64,000 nucleotides of DNA from Hydrolagus colliei (taxonomy: Eukaryota), in assembly GCA_035084275.1 (NCBI GenBank), contig CM068745.1, positions 35,092,001 through 35,156,000 on the forward strand. The letters run 5' to 3'. The notes under the pieces were generated by a model. It had not been told where the DNA came from, did no database searches, and worked only from the letters and a program-made list of their open reading frames with translations. The position numbers and the translations under genes are program-made. Shown here piece after piece: positions 11,996 to 52,478 of this stretch; position 1 is the stretch's first letter; the number at the start of each line of letters is the position of its first letter.

Positions 11996-12739
11996 TAGGT
12001 AGAAAATACAGTACTAGGATATTAGAAAGATTTGAAGTGCAGATGATGTAACAGTAGTGAGGGGCTGGAAAAAGCATCAGGAAATGGTCACTAACTTTTT
12101 TTTCCTGTAGTTATTGTAATTGTTTTCCATTCTGTTCCCTGTGAGCCACTAACAACAGCCGGATTACAGGAAAATTGTCATCTTAACACTTTTTGGGTGG
12201 TAAAACAAGTGATATTCCTAAATAACAAAACAACAACACAATTACATTTGTATAGCGCCTTTCACATCAGGACGATGTGAAAATACATTTGGTTCCTTGA
12301 ATTCTAGAAAATGTGCAAATCTGTTGATGTTAACATATTAGATTTGGGAGTGAACTCCCTGACTAACCCACCTACCGCAGCTGCTCACCCCCGCCCCCCC
12401 AACCACATAAACACCTTTCGACAAGGGGCAATGATTTTGTTCTGCAGGCATTGCAGACTTCAGGCCGCGACAATTTTAATTTTTTTATTGAGGAGCCTGA
12501 GGCTTTCATTCACAGTGACCAATGCAGAGGTTTAACTTTCAGTATCAATTTTTAAGCCAATATCAGGAGAGGAAGCGTGTTCCAGATAAATTCACCGCAG
12601 GGATGTCTGTTATGCTTTGCTTTGTGTGAAATGATTGCCACATTTGCCTACAAATACAGATTCATTCTAGTTGACAGCAATTCCATATGCAGTGCTCTAG
12701 GATGTTTCCACATGATAAGATATTGTATCAAAGTCAAGT

Positions 12740-13085
12740 AAAATCGCAAAATACTGCAGAATGGATGGAAATCTGAAACAAAAACAGAAATCACTGGGAA
12801 CACTCAGCTGGTCAGGCAGCATCTATGGAGAAAGGAAAGTGAATCAATGTTTCGGATCCACAACTCTTCGTCAGAACTTTGGGTAATATTGGGTAACAGG
12901 GAATATTGGTCACTCAATCCACGACTGTTTGTGGGACTCTGTTGTGCACAATTGGCTGCCGCGGTTCGCTCATAAAACATAGTCAAATCACTTGACAGTA
13001 TATCCTGTGAAGCGCTTTGAGACATCTGAAAGAAGTGATAAAGCGCTATAATTACATCAAAAGAAAATCATTCGCAACACTTTGG
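12740..13085. mobile_element. Chimeric Penelope-pLTR(-)/SINE-tail(+) element, copy 1
   Basis: Colinear and highly similar to 52162-52478, including the junction. Confidence 0.8.
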
Positions 13086-14265
13086 TGCACTTTGTATTCA
13101 TTTCTCATCTCCACTGCTGTTTGATCACTACTGGGCTGGATACAGTAAGCCAATAAGTCGTACTGTTATCTTTGATCCTTTAGCTCATGCAGGATCCTTC
13201 CCATTGTGCAGCTGTTTTATCCTCCACCTCACATCAGAAAACAGTTCAGTGGAGTCTGGGTTTGAAGTGGTTCTAACAAGGAAGTCTTAAGAATGAGCTC
13301 AGCATTTTGTGAGTTTTTTGTTTGTTTAAAAAAATGTTCTATACAAAGTTCAGGTACTGAAGCATTAACTCTTAGGTAGACTTGAATGTGCACGTCTAGT
13401 GTTATTGAAGTCAGGAAGTAGGAGGTTATGCCAAAAATCACATTGATGTCAACAGGAAGTAAACTGAGATAAACCAGTAGTTAATTCTAGTTTAAAGGTA
13501 AGAGTAGTTTCCAGTTTAAAGGTAAAAGTAGTTTAAATTTAAGAGTGAACAACAAGCTTTAATTTGTATTTAATTCTTGTGGTCATTAATTATTTGATTC
13601 CCCCACACACACCCACTAGCAATCACTGTCAGTCTCCAGTCTCTTTCTTTTAACAGAGACCAAGCTGAGCCAGTCTAAATGCAATGTGCGTGTGACCCTT
13701 GAGATCTGTCAGCGGGGGTGCTTCTCCTTGTTTTCCTGGCTTGGATTGCAGCCCACATCTGTACAGATTACACAGGATACCTCCAGGGCCAAGGATGTGT
13801 CACAGTATTTACATTGAATGTTTTATGTCCATTCAAGCCCAGGAGTCGGATAAACCTTGTGCCATATCGGGAGCCATTGGCTAAAAATGTTAATACACAC
13901 AGTAAAGTGTTCAGCATATAAAATGAATTTCTTGTGAGTTCTTTTAAAATATAATCAAAGTTTTATTATAAATACTGTAATAGGAACAGGAGGAGAAGGT
14001 CGTTCAAACCATTGAGCCTGTTCTTAGTTGATCATTAGAAATATTTTAATTCAATTTCAATGCCTTTTTTCCTATACCCCTTGGTACGCTGTTTCCCATG
14101 TATCTATTGGCCTCAATTTTAACTATACCAATTGATTCTGCCTCCGCAGCCTTCTGGGTCAGTGTAGTTTTGAAGCCACCAGGATGGTGGAGTGGTTTAA
14201 AAGATCATGTATTGTGAGATAGTCTGCCTGCAACTGCCCTTGCCAAACTCTTTCCTCACCATTTA

Positions 14266-25363: not shown

Positions 25364-26146
25364 GTAAGGCACACCTTCACTGACACACTGATGTACTGAA
25401 TACATCACTGTGTCTTGGGCTCACACAACCCTTTACTCTTCAAATGTTAAAGTGCTACTGGCTCTAGTAATTATCTTCTAATCCCAGTTTTGTAGAGAGA
25501 TGGGAACAAGGGTCAAGTAAGGTGTCAGATTGGCTCAGTTGATAGCATTGTGGGTTCTAGGTCCAATGCAAGACTCATAGCATCACATTTTCTGAGGTGC
25601 TGTCCTTCAGGTAAAATCTTTAAATAGAAGTCCTGTCTATCAGTCAGGTGATCTTATAATAATAATGACAGGTTTCTGTCACCACACAGACACACAGCTA
25701 ATCAAATGAAAAGTATTGAGCTAAATGCTGCTGGAGTGGATGCATTGTAGTTATTGTTGGTAACACTAGCCCCTCTCTCTCACAATAAGCTTCTGCTGCA
25801 TGTAAATCATTCCCAATGCCCTGCACCTTTTTTTTAATCAATGGAAATACCTGCTGTTTTGAAATAGAATGAAACATTCTTTAATGAAAACAGAAGGTTC
25901 AAACCCAGAACATTACACTTGGTTTCTCTTTCTGATATTGCACTGTGGTTTCCAAGGTTCAATGTTTTATTTTATCTTTGATGGAAATACAACATTCTGC
26001 AATTGCACCTTACCCAGGGCATCAGAAAAAGCTATTAACCATTCTTGTGCTCTTGCCATTCAATCTGCAGCCTGTCTAATCTCTTCACTGTAAGATTTGG
26101 TTGCCAGCTGTGAACTAACAGAGGTTTGTTGTGTCTGCTCTTGCAG

Positions 26147-26291
26147 ACAGGAGTTTGGCACAGAGCAATGCCCTGACCTGACCAAGGAAGTGTATCTGCA
26201 AGACATTCACTGTGTGGGTTCTCTCTGTAAGCAGTACTTCCGAGAACTCCCAAATCCTCTCCTCACTTATGAACTGTACAAAAAATTCACA
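26147..26291 (+). CDS. ARHGAP31: ARHGAP31 exon 3
   Basis: ttgcag acceptor. Encodes QEFGTEQCPDLTKEVYLQDIHCVGSLCKQYFRELPNPLLTYELYKKFT. Donor gtgagt. Confidence 0.97.
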
Positions 26292-28418
26292 GTGAGTACA
26301 TTACTTTATTCTTCTCTAGTTTACTGTCACTCTTTCCTTCAGAACGCAGTGCCTGGATGTGGTTTGAATGGTGGAGGTAGGCCTCAGAGTATCTATTCCA
26401 GCGTGAGTTTGACCATGAGAGGTATCACAGCCAAGCCTAAACCTTCCTTCACTTCCTTGATTTGCTAACCTCCCGCTGAACATTTAAAACTGTTTGCTCG
26501 GTGGAACAGTAGGGCTGTATGGGGGTGACAGTTTTAAGAAGACATTATACAACAGCAGCAACATCTTGCATTCATATAGTAGCCTTCACCCAGGAGAGTG
26601 AGAGAGCATTCTTCAGTGATGGGGTTGTTTCTAGAAAACAACGGAAAAGTGGGAGGAGAAGGAGGTGACCATAGGCCTAGTTGAAGAGGTAGACTTAAGG
26701 TTGGGATTTCAAGATGGATAAAGAGGGGGTGAGCTGCGAGATTAAAACAGGGAGTTCCAGAGGTTCGGCACATGGTGATTGAAGACCTGGCCATTGATAG
26801 TGGCACAGGGAGGTCAGGGACTCCCGGCAGGCTTGTGGTAATTGTGGAGTGAGGTATGAGCTGGTCAGAGAAGGAGGGAAATATGTCTAGGATTGTTGGG
26901 GATATGACAATGTAAGCAATAGAGGCCTATAGTATTACAAAAATGGGACCAGGTGACATGTAATGGTCTTTTCCAATCATTTAGGTTCCTATGCTCCCTC
27001 TTGACAGTCGATCACTTCACTAGAGAATACAAGCCTATGTAAAGGACGCTATGTAAACACAAGCTGTTATTTGTTGTTGTTGCTGACGGATGCTGAGGTA
27101 TGGTTCCATCAGCACCAGGTCTCATTTTACCAGGGGCACAAGTGTATTGACACATTCATCTAAGCACACAGTCAGCTTTGCTTGAACGCAGGTTGATCCA
27201 CACATACAAGCCTACAAATTCATGCACACAGTGCACATAGATATCCATATCCTCATGCTCAGGATTATGTATATTCACAAGATCACACTCAAATATTTAC
27301 AAACACACACCGACAAACTTACTAAGAAGTCAGGCTCACAAACACACACACACACAAGTGCCTGATGTCAAAGCATCTCAAAATACTTTAAAGTAACATA
27401 CTGAAACTTTAAACAGAAATGGCAGCAATTTTACTTACACTGTAGTAAGGTTCCAGAAACAGTCATGAGGTGAATGACAATTAATATGCAGTATTGTCTA
27501 TCAGCATAATAATGATAACAACAATACTAATAATAAAGAATGAAAGAAGAAACTCTCTTTGTGTTTCTAATGGTGCCTGCGATTGTTAACATCCACCTTT
27601 AAAACAGCGAATACAAATCTGGACAGGGAAAGGCTCCTATGTAAGTGTGGGCCCTATTTGTACTGTTCCTGAACTTGTATGGCTTTGAAATCTACTAGAT
27701 TGTCAGCAGATCAGTGTTCCATATTTTATTTCAAAGTGAGTGAATGGCCTCAGAAGTCAAATAAGCCTAAGGCAGCTGGTTCTGTAATTCCATTGGAGCA
27801 GAACAAAATTCTGTAGTGTAGTAAGCTGCTATAACATCTGGAGAAAGGTTCAACAAGTGCTCACATCAGCTGTCGTGAGTTACATCTGGTACATCTAGTA
27901 AATGCAGATAGACAGATTTAAACAGTGCTGATCATCAAATTACTGATTTAAATTAGCAATACATGCAACAGTCTACAATATTGAGATGTTTGATGCTTTG
28001 AGAAGATTTTAGTTAAGAAATGTGCCACCAAAATGTTAATTTTAATGTTGTACTCTAAAAGGAACACTCAACCCATGTTAGAAAGTATATATTAGTTCAA
28101 GTCCCAGGCCAAAGATTTGGAGCTCATGGTCTAAAATGGCACTCCACTGCTGTGAAAGTACTGCACCGTCAAAGCTGCCATCCTTTAGATGAGATGTTAA
28201 ACCAAGCCCTTTTGTGCCTGTTCAAGTGGTCATCAAAGAACCACTAATCAAGTCACGTTTCGAAATGAGAAGGAAATATCTCCTGGAATATCTTCCTTCT
28301 GTGAAATGCTTTGGTTAAAACAATGCTTTATTATCATTAAAGTTGCTGAACTCTGTCTTAAGCCATATCTCTCACCTTCCATGTCTGTGAGCGTTTAAGT
28401 CATTTACTTCATCTGTAG

Positions 28419-28501
28419 GAGGCGGTGTCGGCTCAGTCAGAGGAGGAGCAGATTCTCAGAGTCCACAACGTCATCAAAGAACTGCCTTCTCCGCATTACA
28501 G
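28419..28501 (+). CDS. ARHGAP31: ARHGAP31 exon 4
   Basis: ctgtag acceptor. Encodes EAVSAQSEEEQILRVHNVIKELPSPHYR. Donor gtaata; phase consistent. Confidence 0.95.
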
Positions 28502-29683
28502 GTAATAGAAGCCAGAGAAAGTAGCTAGAAATTCCACTCATGCTTGGCCTTTTCTCCTAAAACTTGAGGTTGTGCATAATGTGGATATTTCTCCATTTCA
28601 GTCGTAGTTTGGAAGCCAGTTTTAAACAGTTTGTAAAATGAACCATTTTTCAGATTAAGACTGTATTTCAGAATTTTCCACTATTTTGCCCAATCTTAAA
28701 TTTTAATGGTCACTAAATTAAGTCGAGGCAGAATTTTATATACATAATAACCTAAGAGATTTCCTTTCCTCCCATTTTCTAGTCTTCAATGATGCTGACA
28801 AGTTTACAGAGTCTCTTGGGTCAATCAGTCTTGAATGAATTTTGAATGAAAAGTGGTACCACCATTAGCTAAATTAGCTCACCTCCCAACATGAAATGCT
28901 GTTATTCAATTTGTTGTTATTTGTTGTTGAATGTTTTAGGCTTCTATACAGTGTGAAATCCTGAAAAAGCATTATTATTACACCCAATAAAGCATAATTG
29001 AAATATTAACCCCACTTTACTAAAAATAATATATTTTTAAAGAAAATATATTTTCAATTGTTTACCCTGCCTGTGCCCTCTTTTTTGTTTTAGTTTATCT
29101 TCCTTGCCTATTCTTTTCTTCTACAATTTTTTTCATCTTAACTGTTTTTTGCTCCTGATATTTATTATAAATATTATACCATACTACAGTACTACAGTTT
29201 ACCTCCTTTCTCTGTCCATCACATACGGAAGGTGGAAGGTAATGGTAAAGTGTTTTTACCATTGGCTGATGATGTTTTTACAGGCCACTTTTTGCAGCCA
29301 ATTAACAGGCTAAAAGGTAGAAAATTGATAGAGCTGCATCCCAGATGTGGCAATGTTACATTCCTGATAGCATTTTCATTTCTAAACTAGGGCATGAGAG
29401 ATAATGAATAAATCTCTCATACCCAGACAAAGTGAAATTGTCATCAGGAGTCTCTCCTAAAGTCCCTCCTCCCTCTGTCTCTACTTTCAAAACTCATCTA
29501 AAAAATGTTTATTTGGTCTACCAGCACCTTGGGATGTCCTCCTGATGTGAAAGGCTCTATACAAGTGTAACTTTGTTGTTGTGTTCCCTTGTCACCTCTG
29601 CATAGTGTTTTGTGTTTTTCGTGAATGGTGCGTAAATGCAAATTGTAGTCATTAAAACAAATCTGAACTTCTTCCCCTTGCAG

Positions 29684-29791
29684 GACTTTGGAATACCTGA
29701 CAAAACATTTGACACACATTGCTTCCTACAGCTGTGAGACAAATATGCACTCCAGGAATCTGGCACTCGTCTGGGCTCCCAATCTACTGAG
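29684..29791 (+). CDS. ARHGAP31: ARHGAP31 exon 5
   Basis: ttgcag acceptor. Encodes TLEYLTKHLTHIASYSCETNMHSRNLALVWAPNLLR, the RhoGAP NxM...NLA.VW.PNL motif. Donor gtagac. Confidence 0.96.
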
Positions 29792-30559
29792 GTAGACTTT
29801 GGTACCTTTGAATTCTAAACCTAAATTGTTTGTGAAAAAATGCAAGAGAATTATATGTGTGGAGATGGGAGCACGGCAAGATAGATTATTTGGTGGTGTA
29901 ATTTTTTTTCTTTGTATTTCTTAAAGAGATGGAGACTCAACATGGATTCCTCATTACGAATTACTATAAATTAGACCCCTAACAATGTTTAAGCAATAAA
30001 AAAAACATAGAAATGTAGATTATATTAATGAAATAATTTGCTATTGTTCTATGTATTGCCCTCACAATGTATGTATAACTTGATGCCTTCCTTTCATTAA
30101 TCTCTGTGGATGTTTGCGTTGGGTTGCAGTTCATGCTTTTTACAGCATTGCTTCTCTGAAATTGACCCCTGATCTCTTAAGAGCATTAGGTCAACATTCT
30201 TGCCATTCCAGGAGCTAGGAATGGAATGTTCTGTTATCTTCCACAGTAGAAACTCAGGTTTAGTTTGAGTCCAATCTGAAAATTAAATCTTAATCCCATC
30301 ACCTGCAAGTATCTACCTTTTTCAGTAAATGAAAAAGAGGCCCCTTCTTCTTGCTGTCCACTTACTATAACAATGGAGAGAGGTCCACATTCAAAAATCC
30401 TTTTGTTTCAGATGAGATGTTAAACTAAGGTCCTGTCTACCTGTTTTGGTGACGTTAACAATCCAAGGGCATTGCTTAAAATGAGAAAGAAGTTTCCATA
30501 ATCTTTTGGAAAAATTGGAAATTCACTTCAATTCACTTCATTGAAATTCACTTTCAATT

Positions 30560-30905
30560 CACTCCTTACCTGCCCACCCACTCAGTTCAGCGGGCTCCGG
30601 TCTGCTCCATGTCTCCCGCCCAACCCGCCCTACCATCGGTGGCCGGGCTTTCAGCCTCTCTGCCCCCACACTCTGGAACTCCATCCCACAGTCCATTCAC
30701 CTCACTTCCTCCCTTGCCTCCTTCAAGGCCAGTCTCAAGACCCTCCTTTTCAATTTTACGTTCTGCTACCCTTCCACCCCTCTCCTCCTCCCCATCCCCA
30801 CCTTGCCCCTCCCTTATACTCGGGTCCCTACCAAGGTTCAGCACCTTGGTATGTCCCTCCAACGTGAAAGGCGCTCTATAAATGCAATTTTGTTATTGTT
30901 GTTGT
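30560..30905 (+). mobile_element. L2 3'-end fragment with (TTG)n tail
   Basis: ccctaccatcggtggccgggctttcagcctctctgcccccacactctggaactcc is near-identical to the 16770 region. Confidence 0.85.
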
Positions 30906-30907
30906 TT

Positions 30908-31230
30908 AGAATCATATAATCTTACAGCACAGAATTATTCTATGAGGATATGTTTTGCGGGGTTATGGAGAGGGAGCCAGCACAGACTTGATGGGCTGAA
31001 TGGCCTCCTTTTGAGCTGTAAAATTCTATGATTCTAGCAGGAGGCCATTTGGTCCATCACATTTCCCCTGCTTTCTCCACATAGCCCTGCAAACCTATCT
31101 TCCCCAAATAACTATCTACAGTACTTCTCTCTTAAAAGTTGTTATTGAATTGACTTCCACCACCTTTTCATACAATGCATTCCAGATTCAAACAATTTGC
31201 TGCATGAAAATAGTTTTTTCATTTTCTCAT
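30908..31230. mobile_element. Nested CR1 tails in opposite orientations
   Basis: Minus tail (tagaatcatataatcttacagcacag ... gcaggaggccatttggtcc) is interrupted by a plus tail (gatgggctgaatggcctcct...attctatgattcta). Confidence 0.65.
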
Positions 31231-31638
31231 GTTTCTTTCAACATATCATGTGTGAAACTTAGCTGCAGTTTTTGCCCAGAGTTACTAACTAGCAATGATT
31301 TGTGAGGCCCTTTGAGGTGTTTCAACATTATCAATGCAATACAGCCAATGCAAGAATTATCATTATTAAACCCACTCAAAATAACATGTACAAGGGATTG
31401 AAGGAAGCAGACTGTTTCACTTTTCCCATGAAGAAAACACTGAACTAGTTTGTGAGACCATTACGATTCCCTATAAATTAAATGGTATCACTTCTAGGAT
31501 CCAAACTCTTCTCAACACCATTGTTTGCCCAAATGATTTGTGTCCCATTCATTTCTTTATCTCATTTTAGAATATGCATTAAAACCTGAACTAATTAATG
31601 GACATCAATGCAATTCATGCTATATTCTGTGTTTGTAG

Positions 31639-31784
31639 ATCAAAGGAAATAGAAGGTTCTGGCTACAATAATGATGCTGCGTTTCTGGAGGTGCGAATTC
31701 AGTCTGTTGTCATTGAGTTCATCCTGAATCACGTCAATCAGCTGTTCAACAACAGTACAAAGCAGCCTGGCCAAGAGAATGAAG
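31639..31784 (+). CDS. ARHGAP31: ARHGAP31 exon 6
   Basis: ttgtag acceptor. Encodes SKEIEGSGYNNDAAFLEVRIQSVVIEFILNHVNQLFNNSTKQPGQENE. Donor gtgaga. Confidence 0.95.
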
Positions 31785-31987
31785 GTGAGACTTAAACAGT
31801 AATAACTGGGACTTCAGATTTATGTCAGTGTTTTTCATTTATATGAATTTGGCAAATTCTTAAAACGATCTTAATTTTGAAGACAGTTTTTCTAGTTCTT
31901 AAAACCAAATATTTTAAAATCTTTCCTACTCCTGCATGAAACCTTGAGTAAGTTTTATTACTCCACACACCTCTGTTTACCTAGCAG

Positions 31988-32333
31988 TTGGGTCCGGCGA
32001 TATATCGATATATATCGATATAATTTTCAAATCGATATGCCAATATCGGAATTAAAAATATGTCGATATATTGAAAAATTCGATGTGTACATTAAAAAAT
32101 ATATATATTGCAAATATCAGTATATCGTGTCTGGCGATATATCGATATATTGGTATATATCGGTATAATGCGGACTTTTTCAACTTACCTTGTTGATATC
32201 CGAATGCGCGCGCACACCGGAATGCGCGCGCATGCACGGGACAAAAAACCCCGCGATATCGATATATCAGTATATATCGATATGGGCAAACCAATATATC
32301 GATATCGGAAAATTTCAATATCGACGGACCCTA
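31988..32333 (+). mobile_element. hAT-type MITE rich in ATATCGATAT palindromes
   Basis: TIRs t(t/a)gggtccg(g/t)cgatat and a perfect 8-bp TSD CCTAGCAG (31980-31987 / 32334-32341). Inserted into a SINE. Confidence 0.88.
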
Positions 32334-32689
32334 CCTAGCAGTAAATAAGAGTCTGGTTGTTAGTCAATCGCATATTGTTTTTCCAGGGGAAAAATCCTTT
32401 CAAAAGAAAAAATAATTTGGTCGCTTAATCCACAACCGTTTATGGGACACTATTGTGCACAATTGATTGCCGCGTTTTGCCCATAAAACATACAGTCAAT
32501 TCACTTTTCGGTATATTCTGGGAAGCACTTTCAGACGTCTAGAAGACATGAAAAGCACTACATCAAATGCAAGGATTATTATTATATTCTGTGAAGCCCT
32601 TTGAGATGTCTAGAAGAAGGGATAAGGCGCTATATCAAACACAAAAATTATTATATTAAATAATGCTAGTACATAAACATGGCTCAAAT

Positions 32690-33170
32690 GCCTTGGATTA
32701 CAATTTCTTAGATTTGCACTTAGCGGGGAAATTGTCAAACCATTTTTGTATAAGTATAGGAAGACGCCTAAGGCATGGAATCGAAACACCTCCATCCTGT
32801 GCAGCAGCATGGAAATAACTGGTGGGTGTGTCTCTTGGAAGCTTTGGCCACCTATGCACAGCTGCATGTGTTTGCAGATCCATTTTTTTGAGACGTTTTA
32901 TGGTCCAACACCCCAAAACTAATCGGTACTGTAATCTAGGGATAAGATGATTAATAAAAATATAAATTTGTTGCTGCCATTTCAGTGGGGCACGTGAGAG
33001 ACTCTGGATCACATCCTCTAGAATCGACCCTATGGGCTCCACTTTCCATATGTCCAAAATGCATACCAATATATTTAAAATTACTTATTGCAGTTAGGGT
33101 ATTGAATGGTCAATTGTTCATTGTAAATGTTTGTGTTTCATTGACAAGATAGCATTAGTGCATCCTGTAG
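32690..33170 (-). mobile_element. R2-clade (restriction-like endonuclease) non-LTR retrotransposon relic
   Basis: Reverse strand: FKYIG (RT domain 7), then LSRAPLKWQQQIYIFINHLIPRLQYRLVLG...MD...VHRW.KLPRDTPTSYFHAAAQDGGVSIP, the R2-type thumb signature (aPLKpqQ...lIPrl...wL.LP...ffh....GGlGi). Confidence 0.8.
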
Positions 33171-33410
33171 ATGACTAATCAATCAATCAATCAAAACTTA
33201 CATTTATATAGTGCCTTTCACGTCGAGAGGACATTGTACTGTTAGGTAGGGACAAGACCAGGGGGGAAGCGGTCAGGGCAGGAAGAAGAAGAGGAGGAAA
33301 ATTGACTGTATATTTGTGGACGAAACAGGGAGTCACATCCTAACATTGCTCCTTGAATAAGCAATGGGATGTGTTTAGGAATACCTAATCAATGTGATTT
33401 GTCTCAACAG

Positions 33411-33609
33411 TACACAACCCTATTTCAATATGTAAATCACTTCCTGTTGTATCACCGTCCATGAAGCTCCTAACGCTAGAGGAGGCCCAAGCCAGGACTC
33501 TAGGCCCAGACCATCCGGCTCGACTTGAAAAGTTGCACTGTGCTCCCATGGACACTGGGCCTGCGGCTGGAACAATTTATCACACAGTCATTGATCTGCC
33601 AGATCCCAG
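33411..33609 (+). CDS. ARHGAP31: ARHGAP31 exon 7
   Basis: caacag acceptor. Encodes VHNPISICKSLPVVSPSMKLLTLEEAQARTLGPDHPARLEKLHCAPMDTGPAAGTIYHTVIDLPDPR with the conserved MKL..LEEAQAR motif. Donor gtaaga. Confidence 0.93.
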
Positions 33610-33660
33610 GTAAGATTATATCCCTATTTGCACAGAAAGTTTACTTTGTCAACTCATTAT

Positions 33661-33950
33661 GAAGTTCTGTAGCTCAGTGATTAGAGAACTCTACTTATAA
33701 GCGTGAGACCTGTGTTCGAATCCAGGTAGGTCAGGGCGAAACCTTGGGCAAGGTTCCTTACTCCACATGCCTGATAACAATCCCTAAAAAAAAACAATAA
33801 TACAAACTTGGTAATTTCAATCCAATTGTCTGCCACATTTAGCTCACAAATACGGTCAATTCACTTTACAGTATTTTCTGTGAAGCATTTTGAGATGTCT
33901 AGAAGACGTGAAAAGCGCTGTATCAAAATGCAAGGATTATTATTATTATT
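33661..33950 (+). mobile_element. tRNA-derived SINE
   Basis: tgtagctcagtgattagag...gttcgaatcc...gcaaggattattattattatt. Confidence 0.88.
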
Positions 33951-34223
33951 ACACACAATAAGGTCACACTTGCTGATCATTGACTGAATTTAAGAATATT
34001 TTTCAATTCTTTGCATTCTCTTCCATGTTGTATGATAAAATTGTCCTGCAGGCTAAGATTAGGTGAAATTTTGGACCAGAGAGAGGAAAGCTTCTGTTAC
34101 TCCAGATCCAATTCAAATCCATTTCCGACAGTTTGAAGGATAGTGTTTATTATTATACTCAGCAATGTTTGTTCAATGTCTGTGCTTTAATTGATTTGTA
34201 AGGAATACTATCTTGTTTTCTAG

Positions 34224-34348
34224 AAGAAAACTTTCTGCAAAAGCAAAGAAATGGAAATCCATCTTTAACCTAGGCCGCTCAGGAGCTGATTCTAAGGGCA
34301 AACTGAGCAGGAACAGCAGTGTATTCGTAAGAGGCCGTAAGCTGTCTG
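34224..34348 (+). CDS. ARHGAP31: ARHGAP31 exon 8
   Basis: ttctag acceptor. Encodes RKLSAKAKKWKSIFNLGRSGADSKGKLSRNSSVFVRGRKLS (basic region, KWKSIFNLGRS). Donor gtaaga. Confidence 0.95.
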
Positions 34349-35781
34349 GTAAGAACATTGACATTCAGTAACAGAGACACTCATAATCATACAGGCATCA
34401 ATCTTTCAGGATCAATTTAATTATATATTGTATATCTGTCATTGAATGTGATGAAGATGACCCTGGCGATGTCTATGCCAGGCCAAACTGAAAATGTCAT
34501 GATAAATGCACAATCAATTATATCCAAAACAAAAAATGTAAAGAATAACAACCGAACAAATGCAGCTGTTAACTTTGTGATTGATCAGATGGAGTAGAAT
34601 GTTTTTTTCAAGTTGTGTACACTCCTAAGTTCCTGCAAGGAACTTTCAAGCTATCTGGCAAGCTTTCCTGCTGCTTATCCAGCTAGGACTACCCTACCCA
34701 TTAGAGCTTTGGCTTGCAGGATTAACGGGAGTTGAGTGGGATAACTCCTTGCCCCCAGTGACCAGTCTGTCCCTCCAGGTCCTGCCGATGAGCCAGGCTG
34801 GCTGTGCTGTCCTGTACCATGGATTTCCGCTGACCCACCTGGCTCAGGAACGAGACTACAGAGACAGCCACAGAGGGCTGGCTCCATTCCAATATTCCAT
34901 TTCCAGGCATGTCATTGTGAAGTCAGTTCTGTTCCAAGGAGACCCCGCTTACCTCTCTACAGGCCAATCAACATTCATTCTAGGCCCTGGACATACAAAT
35001 GCATGTTCATGAACTCAGACTCCAGATAATGCCTTCCGGCAACTATTGTCTCGAGCCTCAGTGTTTCTCATCAGCTATCCGCAAGGTATTTGCCTTCAAC
35101 ATGGTAGGGAACTTTCAGGTTGATCAAAACAAAGCTACACCCACTTGGAACTGAACTGGCTCTGCAAGTGTAGGCAAGTCCTCAAACCTGTGAACCAAAG
35201 CCCCAAAGAGTATCGCTGGTCGAGATAAGCAATGTGACTCACAGTCAATATTTCATTCCTGGTCTTACCAGTCATCTTTTGAGTATCAAGCATCTACTTG
35301 GGGAAACTATTGATTGGTCTATTATGGTTTGATATTGTGGCTAACATGTCACAGTTCTGTGTAAAATTGAATTGCATCACACTGACCATAACTTACTGTA
35401 TTTGCTCCGTGTAACTTGTTGTTGTAAACTAATGATGTCTCACAGGAGTATAACACACTTCTGTTCTCATTCAGCGTGTTAGAGAGACTCCACAAAACAG
35501 CAAATCCAGGAGATTTCTCTCAACCAAAATTAATGAACAACAAGAACTTTTAAAATCCTATACATTATATTTCCCGAAATAACAAATAGCAGTAAATGAA
35601 TTAAATGTTACAGCCTAATAATGGGGTCAGATGGTGTTCGCAAACTTGTTGGCTTTCATCTCGGTGCATGTCATTGAAACCCTTTGATTAGTTTGCAGTT
35701 CTGTATTTTTTTCTCTCCGGTGTCTGGTTTTCTGTGTGTACTTTTCACTCACAAGTGTTTCCTTTCTTTATGTTCAAACAG

Positions 35782-35841
35782 AAAAGGCCAGCATCCGACC
35801 AGCTAAAAGCATGGATTCCCTTTGTTCTTTGCCTGCGGAAG
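35782..35841 (+). CDS. ARHGAP31: ARHGAP31 exon 9
   Basis: aaacag acceptor. Encodes EKASIRPAKSMDSLCSLPAE (conserved RPAKSMDSL). Donor gtaaga. Confidence 0.94.
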
Positions 35842-37403
35842 GTAAGATACATTGTATCTTGCACAAGTTTACCTTCTGTTGTTGAGTGACTTTTCAGAAG
35901 TTGATGTAAGGGGAAGCAGAGGGTGTCCTGGGTTAAATTCAGCAATACTGTCTGTGCCATTGCACAGCCACATTCAGAACACCGCACTGAAGACTCAAAC
36001 TTCACTCGGAGAACATTCCAAACCACATTACTTCATTCACCTCTCATAGCTACCACTGGGTAATTACTGATGATGAAGCTCATTACAGAAAGAGGCATCA
36101 CCCTTTGAGTAGTCACCTCCAACAAAATAACATTGTTTGGTTTTGTTCCACTCGCTTCTGCATATTTTAGTTTAAGTTGGATGATATTATTGGCATGTCA
36201 CTGTTCATGAGCCTGAAAGTGCGAGGAGATTGAATTAACAATGGCAATGACATAGTCATTAAGATTATAGAGTTTTGGTGTCTGCTCTGTACGTAAACCC
36301 AGCTCTGCTTTTAAGTTCATCAGCTAAACCAGCACCTCCCATGATGTCATTGACCCTTGCAGTTTGATCACTGTTGAATAATAATATTTTCAAAATGGTT
36401 AACTACAATAAACAAGTCAAGACAAGAGGGTGATAGGCTCTCCAGTGCTTAGTGGGGAAATACATTCGGTCTTCCATTGAGTCATACAGACCAGGAGATT
36501 GAAGATTCAGTTCCGGGACACTGGTTGGTGAGCTAATCTGAATTGAGGCGGGATAAGGCACTAAAAGTGATCACTGAAGGTGATAATTTTCATTCTTTGT
36601 TATCCTCAATTCTGTAAAGAAAAATGGCAATTTTCACCCTTCTGGGACAGGTCAGGAACTATTACACTTTCATCAACTTCAATGACATTCAGTGTTCAGG
36701 ATTCTGTTTGGAATAAGAGTAAAAATTAAAATGAGAGCATTCTCAGACAAAATTGGAAGAATGCAAATCCCCTATCTTTTACCCTATTATTTCTGCCTCC
36801 TACAGTCAGACATGCTATTTTGAGAGTAGAGTGAAAGTTTGCATTTTTTGATTTGGTTTTTCATTTGATATATTGCCTTAACATGTTTTTGAGACATCAT
36901 TGAATCTATTGTAAAGTGGTTTGACTGTGTATTTTGTGGGTGAAATGCAGCAACAAAGTTCCACAAACAGCCATGGGAGTGAGTGATTGATTTTATTGGC
37001 GAGGATTTGTTGGCCAGGACACTGGAAAAATTATCTTCTTTTTTCGAACAGTGCTTTGGGATCTTTTAACATCCACCTGAACAGGTGAATGGAACATCAA
37101 TTAAGGATGACACCTCTGATAATGCAACACCCAGCGCTACATTGGAAAATCATCTTAGATAGGGTGACCACAATGTCTCTGATAAGCAGGGTCAGTCCTT
37201 GGATGAGTTATTACATTCCTGGCCAAACTTGCCCAGTCTTGATTTCAGCAACAATAAAAAAAATTTAAATGAATGCAGTCATCAGAGAAATACAGTCAAT
37301 CCATTAATTATTGTTCAAACTGTGTGCTGCAGATTCTGTATAAATCTATATGAAAATCTTGCTCTATTATTCCTCACAATCTTTGAATTTTTTTTCCCTG
37401 TAG

Positions 37404-38033
37404 ACGATAAACACGGAGCCACTTTGGGAGGAGGCCTCTCACCTGCCATGAAATCGCACACACTTGGCTCAGGAGGTTCATTTCATCTCGGCAGGAGGCA
37501 TAGTGACTGGGATCAGGAGGATCTTCTTGGTGCTATTGGCGGTTGTGCCAGTAACACCAGTAAAGAAACAACGGCCAAAGAGATGCTGCCACTCAAGCTA
37601 CAGCCAGAGCCGCTTAAAGTGATTCGTGGAGATGCCCTCAACAAGTCAGAACCCACCTCACCAAAGACTAGACGCTTGTTTTATTCAACAAATCTCAATG
37701 AGGTTTCAATGAAATCCAATTTTCCAGGGAACCTGTTCCCCCTTGAAGCATCCCCAAGACATCACAGGAAACCAATAGCTGTGAATATATCAGAGCCCTA
37801 TTCTGTATCTGTCCCATTGCATATCTCAGGAATTATCAGCCCAGGCAGCACACTGTGTAAGGAACCACAGAAAAGTGGACCAGATTTGAACATTGCAGCT
37901 TTACAGGACAGTAGCTTCACAGTAAACCAACATGAAAGCAACAATCTGTCCCCAGCCAAGCATGAGAAAGTAGCAAAAGAACCTCTCAACCAGCCATTTC
38001 CCAACCCCTTTTCTAGCAGAGCTGAAATGAAAG
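37404..38033 (+). CDS. ARHGAP31: ARHGAP31 exon 10
   Basis: Lies within ORF 37199-38050. ctgtag acceptor. Contains FPLEASPRHHRKPIAVNISEPYSVSVPLHIS, similar to mammalian SPRNQRKALNISEPFAVSVP. Donor gtatgt. Confidence 0.92.
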
Positions 38034-39003
38034 GTATGTACTTTCTATGAAATAAATAACTTGACTGAAAGATGGTACCTCCTACAATGCTACACTCTGC
38101 CAGTAATGTAGTACAATATCAACTTAAGATATAAACCTATGTTCCGACATAAGACTAGAACCCACGGACCTGACCAGAAGCAAGAGTGCTTCGAACTGAG
38201 TCAAATTAATATATCGCTTGTTATTCAATGGGAAACTGATACCTTTCTTATCTAGACAGGCTTTACTGTTATCATGTGGAATGCTGTTAAGATAATAATA
38301 GAGACCTTCTAACCAAGTCTTATGGAACAGTGTTTGTGTGAAATAATACCTCATGCTGATTTTTATTTTAACTTTTCATTCCTGTACTAGCTAAAGTCCA
38401 TCCTGAAACATTATTGTAGAAATGCCAAAAATAAATCCGAGGAGCTGTGCTGAATTAACTGATCTCAGTGGGGTGCTATAATTGGCCTTGGTGCCCCTGA
38501 GCTAAGGAAAAGTCTGTTCCTAATCACTACCCAAATAGCTTTGTTATGTGATGTGCTCACATTGGGTGAGGGCAGGATCATGCTCGGCTTTGATGCCCTC
38601 ACAGGCACATAGCACACTAATGCTTACTGTCTGAGATCACAAAATCAAGAATAGCCACTTGTACGGGACATCAGAAGGCGAATCCTCCCTCCCCACAAAT
38701 ATGGCACGTGTCAGTGCTTTCACCAACATGAAACAAACAGACCAAATGGCCTCCCACTGTGTCATTAATTTCCATGTTCTTATGGGAAGAAGTGAAGAGA
38801 GAGAATTGAAGAGAAGTAAAAGATGTGTCACTTCAGGATCGCATATTGGTTCAAATTGGCCAAAAGATGTTATCTTTTTTATTTCAAGTGTACTGAGAGA
38901 GGATTTCAGTGTAGTATTTCTGGTTTATTCTGAACAATATGGAACATGGGAAGAAGTAACATCTATTTATTAAAATCTATTTGTCAATTTCTTTGCTGAT
39001 TAG

Positions 39004-39302
39004 GTGATCAGACCATAGAGAACCAAGAGTTACTTGAATCCCGGCCGATCGATGTTTCCTCCAAGCCTGCTTCTTTCAACCTGCCAACGCTTTTCCCTAA
39101 TGTCACAATCCAACAATCTGAGCCACTGCAGTTAGTGAGCCCTGCATCTTCAGTCAGCAGCTCAAATCTCCCAGACACAGAAAACCAGGAGGGCCAAGCG
39201 CTGCCAAGCCCACTCACTGAGATTCCCTGTGAGAACTGTAACCATCAGACAGCTTCTGAAGACAGCAATAAAGACCAGCCAGCAACAAAACAGGACCAAG
39301 AG
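39004..39302 (+). CDS. ARHGAP31: ARHGAP31 exon 11 (poorly conserved linker)
   Basis: gattag acceptor. Open frame GDQTIENQELLESRP...KQDQE, donor gtgagt. The 299-nt length converts phase 1 to phase 0, as needed to join exon 12. Confidence 0.82.
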
Positions 39303-40289
39303 GTGAGTCTCATCATTCGAGATTCAGATCAAAATTAATTAGTATTCTATTGTCTAGTCTCACACTTGTTGGAGCTACAAGGGTTTCTGGCACCTGTAAA
39401 ACTGTAACACAGTGTGAGTATTCAATGCCTTTAACAGGGGAGAAAAATAGAAGATTGACAACAGCCATCACAAATATTGAATAGATCACATGGAAACTCA
39501 CAGCAGGGTGACCAAAATGCGAGTGGGAAGTTTGCAATATCACAGCATTTCCTCCCCCACCCTCCCTGCAGATGTCCATTTCACCTCTTTTCACAATGAA
39601 AATGGATTTGAAATGTACCAACTTGGATACTGAGTTGACCATTTAGTTTAGTATTCTCCTGAACAAAGGCCCTTCCTGAGGCTAAACCTTCAATGGTATG
39701 TCTGCAAACCACAGTCATGCCTTGCTGTTGGTCAGAGAATGCTGGTAACAGCAATAGTATCCATTATTTCTCTTTACTTTTTCAATGTGCAGAAATGAAA
39801 TAGTTAGACAGAAATGGTGCACAGAGGGGCTCTCTTGTAAAAATAGCATCTTCCTGTTTGGCAAAATTGTTTCTAAAGAAAACCACATCAAAGGATCTCC
39901 AGCTTCAGGAAGTGTGGAGAGGCAAGAGGAATAGCTCAGCTGCTCCTGTAAGCAGTATCCAACACTGCAATTGACACTCTGTTCTCCAGAGCCTCATTGT
40001 TCAGGTTGAATCCCAGCAATGGGACTGAGATAGGTCTCAGAGAGCAGGATTCGGGTTACACCTGAGGACAGCATTCAGGTTATACCCCAGACAGACCCCA
40101 GTGAATTTAGAAATGAGGTTGGCATCAAACCATGAAGTTTATGAAAGGTATTTTTTTTATATGAGCATAGGGACCTGATAGAGCCACTGTGATAGGAGGC
40201 ATATAGAGCTATGTGAGATGACGTTATCATCTGCAGACATGGGGTCAACTTTCATATGTATGGGGATCACACCCAAGGCCATGATACAT

Positions 40290-40910
40290 TAGAATACATT
40301 AGAATATAGAACTAATATAAAAAGGCCATTCGGCTCAACTGATCTATGCCGTTGTTTATACTCCACATGAGCCTCCTCCTGCCATTCCTCAACTTAACCT
40401 TCTATTCCTGTTTCTCTCATGTACCTTTCTAGCTTCCCATCTATAGCATTTGCCTCACCAAGTTCCACATTCCCATTATTTAGGCCATTATTCTCTGCCT
40501 AAAGAAATTTCTTCTAAATTCTCTATTTGATCTATTTGTGACTATTTTATATTGATGACCCCACAGTTTTGGTCTCCCCCACAAGTGGAAACATCTTCCC
40601 TCTGTCTACCCTATCAAAACCTTTCATAATTTTAAAGGCCTCTATCAGATCACCTCTTACCCTTCCTCTTTTCAAGAGAAAAGAGACCAAGCGTGTTCAG
40701 CCTTTTCTGATGCGTATAACCTCTCAGTTCTGGGATCATCCTCGTGAATCTCCTTTGCACATTTTCCAGTGCTTCTATATCCTTTCCATAATGTGGAGAC
40801 CAGAACTGCCCACAGTATTCTAAGTGTGGTCCAGCCAAGATTGTATATAAGTATACCATAACTTCCCAGTTTTTCATTTTGATCTATCTTGTGACCTTCT
40901 ATATCTATAC
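40290..40910 (-). mobile_element. CR1-clade LINE 3' fragment
   Basis: Minus ORF LYTIL.GPHLEYCGQFWSPHYGKDIEALENVQRRFTRMIPELRG...LGLFSLEKR is the canonical CR1 ORF2 C-terminus. Followed by a CR1 3' UTR and short-repeat tail. Confidence 0.93.
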
Positions 40911-42009
40911 AACTCAACCACTAATGGAATAAACTAACTGAACATAAGGTCATTTATAAAACTTTGCTTAATCTAAAAAAATTAAATTTGTCACAAATGT
41001 TTGTGCTCTGGAGCAACAACACGTTGTTCACAAATGATACTGAAGTGCCCTCTGGTGGATGTAATGAACAATAATCCTTTGGATCTTGGGAGTTTAGAAC
41101 ATAAAAAGCCATTTGTCTGTAAAATAAATATCAAATAGTATTCAATGGGAATAGAAAAGAAATTGGATAATATTTATGAAGAATAATTAAAAGATTAATA
41201 TCTGGGATTGAGGGGTTTTATTTGAGTTTTATTTCTTACAGCTGTTCTGATTGTGGTGTTCAAAATAAGGAAACAAATTGACAAGCTAGATACAACAATA
41301 CAAATTTACATTTATTCAGCACCTTTCAGGTCAGGAGGATGCCCTATGTGCTGGTGGATGACTCTTTCCGCTGGTGCAACACAAATGGCATAACCTTAGA
41401 ATTAGAGTTAGTAAGGATGACTTTGAAAATGTAGAACACACTGACCCAGAAAGTCAAGCAGATAAACTGAATAAAGTGCTTGTTTTGATCCAATAAACTG
41501 CAGAATATGTTGGTTGGGCTGATTGGCTTTCTCCTGGTCAGTCCTAGAGTGAAATGGGCCAAATGTGCGGTAAATTCTTTATTCTATAACAAATAAGCTA
41601 TTACTATTAAGCATTCGGGGATGTTACCCTGCATGAGAGGTGCTATAAAAATATGTTCTCGTTGCTTAGATGTAACTGTAAGTTCATATTTAGTTTTCTT
41701 TTCTGAATTATAGACAAAGAGTAAATCTTCCTCTGCTATTTGAGTTTAGAATAGACAATGAAGTGTACAAACAAACAAATTTACATTAATTGAACACAAG
41801 AAATGTTCTACAATTTGATAATGATCACTTTAACATCAAGAATTACTGATCAATTAAATTACTGAATTTTACCTATACTTAAAGCTAAGTGCTACTGCAG
41901 TACTTTTTAATACCAATGACAATTTACACAATAATTTGATAGTCATGTATTATCAACAAAATATACTTTATTTGTCATTATTTATGGTGCCTTTGTGCCT
42001 GTTTTGCAG

Positions 42010-44259
42010 GTCAACAAGTCCACTGCTAAAGCATTTATGGAGCAGCTTTGGCCAGATACTAAAGAAGAACTCAAGATTACTGAACCTGAGACTGCTACCA
42101 CTGCCAATTTTCAAGAAAAAGTGGAAAAAAGTTTAGTTCAGACTTATGACAAAAATGAAATCAAAGAAAAATCCTTACCTCATGCTTCACCAGACCTACC
42201 TTGTACTGGACCTCAGAAAAAACACAGTTCTAACCAGTTCTTACAAAGTTCATGCATGTCTGTAGTGACTGAAACGAACAAAGACACATGCCCAACCTGT
42301 GCACATCACATACCTTCAACTGAAGAAAGCATTGCATCTGATCAAACTTTGTCTCAACCTCTGCCCATGGGAGACTTATTGGATGTTTCATCAAAGACAG
42401 AACTGCCTCATTCTACAGAAGATAAGAATATTTTTATAGAGAGTCGATCAACCATGTGTGCAAAACCATCTACAGCTAATTCCATCTCAAATGATTCTGA
42501 GTGTAATTTAGGTCAACCTACTGATAGTGGGTTAATTGAGAGAGATCAAAGACCCGGTCTTTCACATCAAGTTGAGACCTCAGAAATTTGGATCAGGGAT
42601 GATATTTCAAAACAATCTGAACTGAGCCCTAAATCAAATGTTAATCTTTCAGGAATGTGTTCAGGAGATGTCTTCTATATTGAAACAAAGCCTGCTAAAG
42701 TTAACCTGCTAAACATTAAAAAGAATCAAAAGAAACAGTTGCCAGATAGACCGTCAAATCTCAAATCCCTCGCATCTCAGACTGATGAGCTCCTCACCCC
42801 TGAGCACTGGATAGACAATGACACATTCCAGCAGTCCAGCTCTCATTCCTCCCAGTGGATTGAAATTAAAATAGTTCAGGAAGAATGTTTGACAGAAGTG
42901 CCAGAAAAGGAGTATGGTTTCTCACAGATAGTTACTAATGTTTCCCAGGAAAAGGAATGGCCTGATCCTCCTCAACAAATATTGTTCTTTGAAGATTGTA
43001 CAGATAAAATTCTCCCCGAGGATTCTTACAGTAGCTCATACCAGTCATTTAATGAAAATATTGGTTGGAGTAAACAGTGTCCAGAGACACCATCTAAAGT
43101 TTCCAAATCTGAGTGTTTGATGAGCACTTGTCCTGTAATGAAACTTGTAACATTTCCAAATGAAATGGAAGAAGCTACAAGCAGTGCGCTGAATGTTCCA
43201 TTAAATAAGGACAATGCAGTGTCATCCAAAGAATCAAAGAGTGCGAGTACTGAGAGCACAGGGGCAGCACCATGCTTAGTTAGTGTGGGCACTGAACCCA
43301 TAGTGAAGAACTTTGATGGAATCAAAGAATACTGCCTGAAATGTGAAGATAAGCCCTTATCTCTTCATTCAAACTCCACAAAGACAGACAAACATCCTGT
43401 GCCTCATGGAGATCTTGTTCAATCATTCCCCATTGGTGTGACAGCTGTTCGAACCACCTACATGATAAAGACATGTCAAGTGAAGGCTGTGCCAGTCATT
43501 CCTCCAAAAGTACAATTTACCCAGGTCCCCCAACCTTTGCAGAAGAAGTGCACAGCAACTCCTTTCCTTTCTCTTGATAAAGTATTGACAGCATTGCAAC
43601 CCAGCACAGTGTGTGAATCAACTTGTCCTGAGAACAAAAAAGGACCGGAAAAGTGTCAACCAAGTTTGCCAATACCTGAACCTAAAGATGGGAAGGAAAA
43701 TGACCTACCAAATGTAACAAAATCCAAAACGTCAGGACATGAAAACCACATTGTTCCATCTGACCCCACTGTTACGCAATCCCAAACCACCCAGGCAGCT
43801 CTTCCAGTTATAAGAAGAACCTGCAAGGCAAATGGAGAAGATGTAATGGGCATACCAATATCTTCAATAGCAGAAAGATCACCAGCTCTGCAAAAATCCT
43901 CTTTTTTGCGGCACACACAGCACAGAACAAGGCCAGGCAGGCCGCAGAGCCTCATCCTGTTCAGCCCGCCATGGCCTAATATGGAGCGTACTTCTTCAGC
44001 TGAGTCCAACAAGGTGCTTCTTAGCCCCATAAGATCTAGCACTGATCAATTACAACAATTGGGACTCGACCATTCAACTTCAGGTGGCTGCCCTAATGAA
44101 CTCAATGAAAATCAGAAGACGCTAGAGGGTGTTACTCTTCGAAGTAAAATGAGCATCCCTAAAAATGGCCAAAGATTGGAGACCTCAACAAGTTGCTTCT
44201 ATCAACCTCAGAGAAGGTCCATGATATTTGAAAACAGAGGTGGCAGGCAAATCGAATGA
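42010..44259 (+). CDS. ARHGAP31: ARHGAP31 exon 12 (large terminal exon)
   Basis: ttgcag acceptor. 749 codons plus TGA. Contains LWPDTKEELKI, AVRTTYMIKTCQVKAVPVIPPKVQFTQVPQPL, RPGRPQSLILFSPP and the diagnostic C-terminus PKNGQRLETSTSCFYQPQRRS...GRQIE. Confidence 0.96.
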   Translation, partial: VNKSTAKAFMEQLWPDTKEELKITEPETATTANFQEKVEKSLVQTYDKNEIKEKSLPHASPDLPCTGPQKKHSSNQFLQSSCMSVVTETNKDTCPTCAHHIPSTEESIASDQTLSQPLPMGDLLDVSSKTELPHSTEDKNIFIESRSTMCAKPSTANSISNDSECNLGQPTDSGLIERDQRPGLSHQVETSEIWIRDDISKQSELSPKSNVNLSGMCSGDVFYIETKPAKVNLLNIKKNQKKQLPDRPSNLKSLASQTDELLTPEHWIDNDTFQQSSSHSSQWIEIKIVQEECLTEVPEKEYGFSQIVTNVSQEKEWPDPPQQILFFEDCTDKILPEDSYSSSYQSFNENIGWSKQCPETPSKVSKSECLMSTCPVMKLVTFPNEMEEATSSALNVPLNKDNAVSSKESKSASTESTGAAPCLVSVGTEPIVKNFDGIKEYCLKCEDKPLSLHSNSTKTDKHPVPHGDLVQSFPIGVTAVRTTYMIKTCQVKAVPVIPPKVQFTQVPQPLQKKCTATPFLSLDKVLTALQPSTVCESTCPENKKGPEKCQPSLPIPEPKDGKENDLPNVTKSKTSGHENHIVPSDPTVTQSQTTQAALPVIRRTCKANGEDVMGIPISSIAERSPALQKSSFLRHTQHRTRPGRPQSLILFSPPWPNMERTSSAESNKVLLSPIRSSTDQLQQLGLDHSTSGGCPNELNENQKTLEGVTLRSKMSIPKNGQRLETSTSCFYQPQRRSMIFENRGGRQIE

Positions 44260-48145: not shown

Positions 48146-49233
48146 TACTTTGGGTATCTTTGAAAATGAATTAAAATGTTGCAAATTCTTATAATGGACC
48201 AATACATTTTTTGTTGATCAAGGTGTGTGCATGTCTCTCTGATTTTCACAATGTTTCCCATAAATTCCCCGAAGCTTTACACATGGATGACTGAAGGTCT
48301 ATCAGACTTGGGGAAACACCAGCTCCGCTGAAACCGCACCACCAGAGGGCACTTCCAGCTTTCTGAAAGGTTATCATGACTGATGAACTTGTCAAGGGCA
48401 ACCTGACTGTGGGAAATCCACCCACCATCTATTAGTAATCATTTTGGAATCAAACACAAATGAGAAAAGATGAATAAATTGTTGAGATGTAATTACTTTG
48501 CGCAGGGAGTGGTGAATCTATGGAAGAGAGGCATCAGTAAATTCAAGAGAGAATTCAATTCGATTTGGCGAAGAATTCAATTGAAGGATATGGAAAAGAA
48601 AGAACTTGTATTTTATACCAGTTTATCAAATTGAAACATCTCAAAGCACTCCAGTTACCATCAAGTGAAATGACTATTTTTGAAGGCAAATGCAGCAGCC
48701 ATTTGAATAAATTACTCAATTGATTTGGAGGCCACCATAAGGCAAGAAACTTCTATCTCTTTTAAATACTGTCATTGGATCTTTAACGTCACCTGAACGG
48801 GTAGATGTGAGCATGGTTTAAAGTCTCAAATTGAAATTATGATATTTTGAATGATCAGGTTCCTACTTACTGCAAGGTAAACAGAGGTGTGTGGAGTAAG
48901 GAAACTTGCCTAATATTTTGCCGTGCCAGGAATTGAACCCAGATCTTTCACTTGTGAGGCGAGGGCTTTAGCTACTGATCTACAGGACTCCACATGATAT
49001 CCAATATAGGGCTTAAAATGACCTGGTCAGCTTTGGTTCTGAAGCTGAGATTGCCCCAAAAGAGCAAAGTTGATTTATATGAGAAAGAATAAGGTAGGAC
49101 TTTTATTTTTTAACTGTGAGATCAGCAAATAATCCATAATGGTTATAGAAGACATAGAATTCTGTGAATCAACATGGATCTACGCATCAAGTTTGGACAG
49201 TTCATACTTCACAACAGGTCATAAATTTAAGTG

Positions 49234-49481
49234 GGTGGCACTCGGTAGTCCGAAGGTTCGATAGTCCAAACACACAAATTTCCTATACCCGGCGCGGTTA
49301 CTGTGGTTACCGCTTGATAGTCCGAAAATAATGTTTGTTAATCCAAACATTTCCATCCTTAGGGTTAGGGTTAGTGTTAGGGTTAGCGTTACAGTTAGGG
49401 TTAGGGAAGCTTCAGACTAATGAACCTTAGGACTAATGAACCTTTCGGACTAACGAACCTTCGAACTATCGAGCTGTAACC
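49234..49481. mobile_element. Mutator/foldback-like MITE with internal (TTAGGG)8
   Basis: 9-bp TSD ATTTAAGTG (49225-49233 / 49482-49490). Imperfect TIRs are built from ttcgatagtccgaagg-type subrepeats. Confidence 0.75.
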
Positions 49482-51585: not shown

Positions 51586-52161
51586 AACCCGGTATGCTAC
51601 TAAACAACCAACTTGTAGTGCGATCATCTTAGGGACCAACTAACTGTGATAGTGTTGTGTGGGTAGAGAAGAGGAGGGGAATAACAATCACAGAGCACGC
51701 AAAATGAAAAACCGTATTTTTTTAATGTTCACACCAGGTTTCCGGAATATGCAGGATTGACCTGTGGGTGTGACATTGAACAGTGTTTTTAGCAACAGCA
51801 GAATTGCAAATGACAAGTTCAAGGTGCGGCAGACAAACCTGCGTAGCAGACGATTTGAAAGGTGATCTATTAAATACAAGGATTATCATTTGCATAAATT
51901 GCTTCACGCTACACCAGTGTTTGGATCAGCCATTACAGTTCATTACAGGAGGAACACTGATACAACATTGAAACATTTTCATCATCTTTAATGATCCTGA
52001 TAGTATTAATTTTGCAATCATTTTGCCTTATACAGAAGTAATGGGTGAAAATTGCAAGGTGTGTTGTGGTAATAATTTGGGATCACTGCACTAAGAATTC
52101 TCTTGTAAAATGGCACAAAGAGTGAGGAGACAACTGCAGCCAAAAGCACTTCCCCAATTAT

Positions 52162-52478
52162 TGAAACAAAAACAGAAATAGCTGGGAACACTCAGCTGGT
52201 CTGGCAGCATCTATGGAGAAAGGAAAATGAATCAACGTTTCGGATCCACGACCCTTTGTCAGAACTTTGGATAATATTGGGTAATGCGGAATATTGGTCA
52301 CTCAATCCACGACTGTTTGTGGGACACTGCTGTGCGCAATTGGCTGCCGCGGTTCGCTCATCAAACATAGTCAAATCACTTGACAGTACAGTATATTCTG
52401 TGAAGCGCTTTGAGACATCTCAAAGATGTGATAAGGCGCGATAATTATATCAAAAGAAAATCATTTGCACCACTTTGC
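52162..52478. mobile_element. Chimeric Penelope-pLTR(-)/SINE-tail(+) element, copy 2
   Basis: Same architecture and junction as 12775-13085. Confidence 0.8.

Follow-up and report, generated by a model that had tools for sequence, protein, structure and literature searches.

Two segments lying 39 kb apart in a 64,000-nt stretch of Hydrolagus colliei DNA (contig CM068745.1; hereafter the window) join the end of a Penelope-like element to part of a tRNA-SINE in the same way, which raises the question of whether they belong to an amplified family or stem from a single local event. The original prediction was of a retrozyme-like, non-autonomous family that had amplified as one unit, probably via the Penelope reverse transcriptase (RT). 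The chimera is a two-copy local duplicate and not a new ribozyme-bearing family; the two segments, designated here copies A and B, are a new instance of known things, namely a truncated Penelope end beside a SINE remnant, duplicated once nearby.

Layout and common descent of the two copies

Self-BLAST of the window gave one pair of segments, A (12774–13084) and B (52162–52477), which lie on the same strand and are 90.8% identical over 316 columns. They differ by 24 substitutions, 15 of them transitions, and by a single 5-nt insertion in B. In each, a pLTR in reverse orientation that carries a minimal hammerhead stands on the left, and a 25-nt junction, a tRNA-SINE 3′ half and about 12 nt of flank follow in that order; one common junction joins the reverse Penelope pLTR to the SINE 3′ half in the two copies, and their flanks are unrelated beyond those ~12 nt according to self-BLAST and alignment. 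Common descent of A and B is far beyond chance, because three pLTR changes that they have in common occur together in only 2 of 44 aligned copies, A and B themselves.

Copy A is preceded by 34 extra pLTR bases (12740–12773, minus strand) that are absent from B and correspond to the Penelope 'tail', an optional 3′ extension of 30–40 nt (assigned from the bimodal ends of the family, with the concept of a tail taken from an excerpt of PMC11167929). A's pLTR here adjoins the end of an older, heavily decayed SINE tail (12589–12737, plus strand), detected by nhmmer with a profile of eight SINE copies from the genome (E 5.6e-7). Sequence alignment placed the pLTR core of A at 12774–12878 (minus strand). 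It is followed by the junction (12879–12903, no strand assigned), which on alignment to family copies consists of a decayed continuation of the pLTR plus ~10 nt more, and by a headless tRNA-SINE 3′ half with a decayed tail (12904–13072, plus strand; nhmmer E 8e-40 for 12904–13058). The unique flank of A (13073–13137, plus strand) has its first 12 nt in common with B and its whole length in common with a third locus, C, 94 kb downstream. In B, a tail-less pLTR core (52162–52266, minus strand, by alignment) leads into the junction, then a SINE 3′ half in which 5 nt are duplicated in B alone, and the 12 nt that also occur in the flank of A (52267–52477, plus strand). The two halves of a candidate imperfect 15-nt target-site duplication (52147–52161 and 52471–52485, plus strand; 11/15 match) border this segment, the first 7 nt of the right half overlapping the end of the A-derived sequence.

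The composite structure predicted for both places was thus confirmed, as was the absence of a Pol III head: an Rfam search of the window gave no tRNA match at A or within B, where only the SINE 3′ half is present, and nhmmer gave no SINE-profile match upstream of B. The supposed linker did not hold up as a separate sequence, since its start is the pLTR's own continuation in decayed form (seen in copies L011 and L015, the BLAST match of L011 reaching 12893 in A). Most of the presumed non-SINE terminus aligns with the decayed SINE tail, leaving ~12 nt (13073–13084) as flank.

An exon encoding a RhoGAP domain in frame (26094–26465, plus strand; Pfam PF00620, E 5.9e-10; best PDB match RICS, 3iug) identifies a host gene. 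A probably lies in an upstream intron of this gene and B past its long 3′ frames at 37163–44256.

Parent repeats and hammerhead motifs

Both parent repeats are abundant. An unbiased 1.0-Mb sample contained 36 pLTR matches, corresponding by extrapolation to ~36,000 fragments per genome, and the SINE tail family made up 7.6% of it. At least three SINE types with different upstream parts carry the same 3′ tail: two tRNA types, one short and one longer and with an insert in the middle, plus one that is older. The 3′ ends of the pLTR in the sample were bimodal, falling at reference positions 1–5 in 18/36 matches and 31–40 in 10/36, as expected from the two RT start sites 30–40 nt apart and the optional tail described for Penelope in part of PMC11167929. 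The pLTR of B starts at reference position 33, inside the second mode, and A carries the tail. Target duplications in the pLTR family are 11–16 nt long, with a score of at least 7 in 16/47 matches vs 3.5% of 537 shuffled pairs. Preference of the pLTR for this SINE was rejected as there was no enrichment: 1/36 unbiased matches lay within 40 nt of a SINE vs 12% of random points (a null of points and not of intervals), at the SINE cover given above. One tail-less pLTR in the window (57308–57437), inserted where a full SINE ends, has a perfect 14-nt target duplication, and its hammerhead core is intact; loci L021, L023, L026 and L065 contain inverted pairs of pLTR fragments, the usual Penelope arrangement.

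In longer pLTR copies the sequence leads on to a frame, now broken, in which a YIG-type motif and a zinc-finger-like CX2-5CxxC linker can be seen. The pLTR was also present at 11/12 loci from a search with the endonuclease end and at 3/4 further loci, with YIG-type and CxxC motifs visible. Pfam left the short broken endonuclease pieces unnamed; in five broken frames it gave GIY-YIG once, below the cut-off (E 0.008), and no RT match. A CX2-5CxxC motif preceding GIY-YIG characterizes Neptune and Nematis in the relevant portion of PMC8557442, and we provisionally assign the pLTR element to the Neptune/Nematis type by this motif. A decayed RT frame elsewhere in the window (53858–54475; RVT_1, E 1.5e-17) is probably a LINE remnant.

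The left part of each copy is, as originally proposed, a Penelope pLTR with the named motifs of a minimal hammerhead on the minus strand: CTGACGA...GAAACATT in A (12868–12874 and 12846–12853) and CTGACAA...GAAACGTT in B (52256–52262 and 52234–52241). The hammerhead was recognized by its core and by the description of minimal hammerheads in part of PMC4209133; Rfam made no hammerhead call across the window (seven matches at E ≤ 1, six tRNA and one chance). Copy A has a minimal type I hammerhead (12842–12878, minus strand) in which CUGANGA is intact, stem II is mismatched and the ACGU palindrome has become ACAU, and copy B a minimal hammerhead (52230–52266, minus strand) with core G8 changed to A. 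Stem II was unformed in the minimum-energy structures of A and B and formed in those of two other family copies. G8 is essential to the hammerhead according to an excerpt of PMC11167929, the mutation tested there being G8C, and a single minimal motif did not cleave in the experiments covered by an excerpt of PMC4209133. Judged by sequence and predicted fold, the hammerhead is damaged in A and in B, in keeping with the degenerate state first noted. As to whether the consensus was intact, the parsimony ancestor of A and B retained both core boxes, but each present copy is damaged. Among other pLTR copies, CUGANGA was found in 28/42, GAAACGU in 14/42 and both in 9/42.

These features agree with endonuclease-bearing (EN+) Penelope-like elements as portrayed in excerpts of PMC4209133, PMC11167929 and PMC8557442, where the type I hammerhead is likewise minimal, has one additional base ahead of stem II and contains an ACGU palindrome, and where the 3′ ends are of two kinds, here ~34 nt apart; the putative YIG-type endonuclease frame of longer copies would fit as well. 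The difference lies in the 5′ junction, which here bears 200 nt of SINE and flanking host sequence taken from a sister locus at a distance of 39 kb.

History and origin of copy B

Compared with the family majority, the SINE half (169 columns) contained 19 changes common to A and B, 6 private to A, 3 private to B and 2 positions differing in both, and the pLTR half (105 columns) 3 common changes and 4 private to each copy. Restricting the SINE set to the 25 most similar copies left 18 shared changes, some of which may be subfamily traits. A and B are each ~4% from their ancestor. Because the 19 SINE changes common to A and B predate the copy, the SINE half must, on this comparison, have decayed before copying, and the template was a decayed genomic locus. 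It follows from the numbers of shared changes, 19 in the SINE half and 3 in the pLTR half, that a pLTR became attached to a SINE remnant older than itself, that the joint aged a little, and that it was then copied once. Contigs from a second organism show A's right junction (13051–13706) and a B-type end, so both predate the split from that organism; contigs from a more distant organism covered neither junction.

A is likely to be the donor of B, since A has the tail and the older locus C has in common with A the bases that run past the end of B. The best target duplication at A, 9/15, is at chance level. Copy B as an original nested insertion in the older SINE type was considered and rejected, there being no profile match in its left flank, its right flank or the in-silico empty site.

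Locus C (G000:C6:35198789–35199170; L086:1196–1577) has as its right part the SINE tail and ~60 nt of A's flank (75% overall) and lacks the pLTR. Its left part, ~160 nt of unique flank plus SINE, matches locus D (G000:C6:35215013–35215275; L108), its partner 16 kb further downstream. The pairs A–C and C–D each have SINE and unique flank in common on the same strand, and each accounted for 2/2 candidates genome-wide. Only 3 derived sites in the SINE part of C are common with A and B, which makes C either a mosaic or a copy of far greater age. Neither C nor D yielded a target duplication. The pairs A–C and C–D show local copying of short SINE-anchored pieces here without Penelope. Two 200-kb control regions yielded nine candidate local pairs, of which the one checked was an ordinary dispersed repeat.

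The explanation that we consider best, one that could as easily prove wrong as right, is that B was made once by local, repeat-anchored copying of the decayed locus A; this, like every route to B, is inferred. A tail-bearing Penelope end would have inserted at A between two old SINE remnants and become joined to the headless SINE half, with no target duplication left. A tail-less pLTR at B, either resident or a cDNA in the course of insertion, would then have paired with its homologue at A, synthesis would have extended across the SINE half and over 12 nt of flank before the new strand joined B again through 5 nt of microhomology where the right target repeat begins. The resulting sequence has no predicted function and has not moved since. 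The left edge of B is a natural, tail-less end of the Penelope family and, together with a weak target duplication (11/15), points to Penelope as its maker; the candidate duplication, which was spotted by eye, has P ~0.01 as an anchored 15-mer and a score of 3 on the family scale, which 21% of null pairs reach.

Local copying accounts for where the edge lies, for the duplication and for the closeness of the two loci, and A–C and C–D are similar events. Against a resident pLTR, B has all three shared pLTR changes and so shows no resident pLTR sequence of independent origin; the first 34 nt contain no informative site. Nor is the fit unique, as a single RNA-templated event gives the same boundaries of B. 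Localised non-tandem duplication, sometimes with conversion between repeat copies, is a common class of rearrangement in the text excerpted from PMC5829575, and the present case shares with it the short, same-strand, local character and the involvement of repeats, with A–C and C–D nearby. It differs in that one edge is the natural end of a retroelement with a possible target duplication, and in being an old, fixed event, whereas those in that excerpt are human polymorphisms.

A possible but distinctly less probable route is a single 5′ transduction by the Penelope RT. A minus-strand read-through RNA across A would have been bound by Penelope protein, and reverse transcription would have begun internally at the tail-less site. 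Its product, spanning the hammerhead left uncut, the SINE half in antisense and 12 nt of flank, would have been inserted at B with a 15-nt target duplication. This would explain why B begins at the tail-less end although A has a tail, and the candidate duplication is as long as those of the family. Initiation within the RNA at two sites 30–40 nt apart, a preference for AT-rich targets and the dispensability of hammerhead cleavage are all reported in excerpts of PMC11167929, and Penelope-like elements can move host genes in trans (PMC8557442, excerpt). The RT was plausibly still present, since family copies as little as 3–4% from the majority exist and A and B are each at a similar distance (~4%) from their ancestor. 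However, random insertion within 50 kb of the donor has a chance of ~1 in 10,000 (simple arithmetic for 1.0 Gb, softened in that a 64-kb window shows local pairs only). There was no local sister pair, as local hopping of the pLTR would give, in the top 25 pairs of 73 pLTR copies, a weak test on a small sample in which subfamily signal is dominant; transduction would also require transcription antisense to the host gene, and the neighbouring A–C and C–D duplications lack a pLTR. The Penelope RT, originally put forward as the agent of amplification, may have made copy B, but in one event and not by the best-supported route. Tentatively, B could be read as the record of a Penelope RT that started at the internal, tail-less site and went past its own 5′ end to pick up host DNA or RNA in cis, from a sister locus, within a chain (A–B, A–C, C–D) in which abundant repeats shuffle unique flanks over 15–100 kb. 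If the Penelope route were true, B would show in a genome what in-vitro work predicts, internal initiation accompanied by 5′ capture. A literature search found no account of a pLTR–SINE chimeric family or of Penelope 5′ transduction of flank.

Homology-independent local duplication, through a replication template switch or a templated insertion at a break, is improbable. It would need no pLTR at B, and the short, local, same-strand copy with microhomology at its right edge fits the class described in part of PMC5829575. The left breakpoint would then have fallen at the tail-less pLTR end by chance, but no more than a few bases separate it from the second natural end of the family, a coincidence estimated at ~2–3% over a 350-nt donor, and the candidate target duplication would be a further chance event (~0.01).

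Copy number and neighbourhood

A genome-wide count of the junction, proposed with the original prediction, returned A and B only: a DNA search of the 1.0-Gb genome with the 71-nt junction gave 2/2 candidates, the same search giving 719 for a dispersed repeat used as a positive control. Patterns for the junction and for the terminus, each allowing 3 mismatches, had two matches each genome-wide, and a pattern of diagnostic SINE changes had four, A and B exactly and two ordinary SINEs without pLTR or terminus. The patterns are indel-free, hence the older locus C was missed by the terminus pattern, and copies with more than 3 changes or with indels in every probe would escape these four probes.

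Genome-wide, eight places, B included, fitted a strict pattern that required a pLTR end no further than 30 nt from the same SINE position; all have different junctions. Target duplications of 11–16 nt were present in 5/7 of the other loci, and likewise in L009 and L010. From the eight differing junctions, mostly with their own target duplications, pLTR–SINE chimeras have formed many times over in separate events, and A/B is the one case seen twice. The nested cases (L009, L010, L038–L041 and L043) combine both parent repeats at the same AT-rich SINE position, but each is a single insertion flanked by a target duplication of its own, unlike A, which lacks one and was copied at a later time.

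An amplified retrozyme-like family of pLTR–SINE chimeras is consequently very improbable and, at the sensitivity of these probes, refuted. The junction and terminus are identical at two places, and the unit of ~316 nt is of retrozyme size (PMC7229834, excerpt), but four probes found two copies in 1.0 Gb, the eight strict pLTR–SINE junctions all differ, and 19 SINE changes predate the copy. Non-LTR retrozymes occur in many copies as tandem units, every one of which carries a type I hammerhead, as set out in excerpts of PMC7229834 and bioRxiv 10.64898/2026.07.22.740005. With the metazoan examples there, A and B have in common their non-coding nature, a length of ~300 nt, low GC and a pLTR-related type I hammerhead. 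They differ in having no tandem array at either place, one hammerhead motif per copy, of the minimal and not the canonical type and damaged in both cases, and two copies in all. What stood of the amplification claim is that a single chimeric locus lies behind both copies and was copied as a unit. As found, this is a dead two-copy rearrangement of common repeats that matters little, with the caution that a chimeric junction seen twice in one window need not mean a family.

An assembly artefact or the remnant of one large segmental duplication can be virtually dismissed, because A and B, although on the same contig and strand, are 9% divergent with unrelated flanks, the three offsets differ (A–B 39 kb, A–C 94 kb, C–D 16 kb), and the second organism's contigs show A's right junction and the B-type end.

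Other features were noted in and around the window. The RhoGAP gene (26094–44256, plus strand) is followed by a tetraspanin exon (60697–60882, minus strand), beyond which lie Tex55, rhodanese and Gla-trypsin genes (L089, L090, L092–L093); human ARHGAP31 lies near UPK1B and TEX55, so the window RhoGAP is likely ARHGAP31-like. Locus D is situated immediately beyond the final trypsin-domain exon of a Gla + trypsin gene on the minus strand. A coding 72-nt tandem repeat of ~1 kb occurs inside the Tex55-like frame (L089:5136–6566), and a near-perfect 84-nt tandem repeat (99%) has open frames on both strands (L087:7258–7565). Finally, a repeat with internal TTAGGG runs and 16–17-nt subrepeats is present in two copies 86 kb apart, at 49232–49472 in the window and at G000:C6:35054815–35054968.
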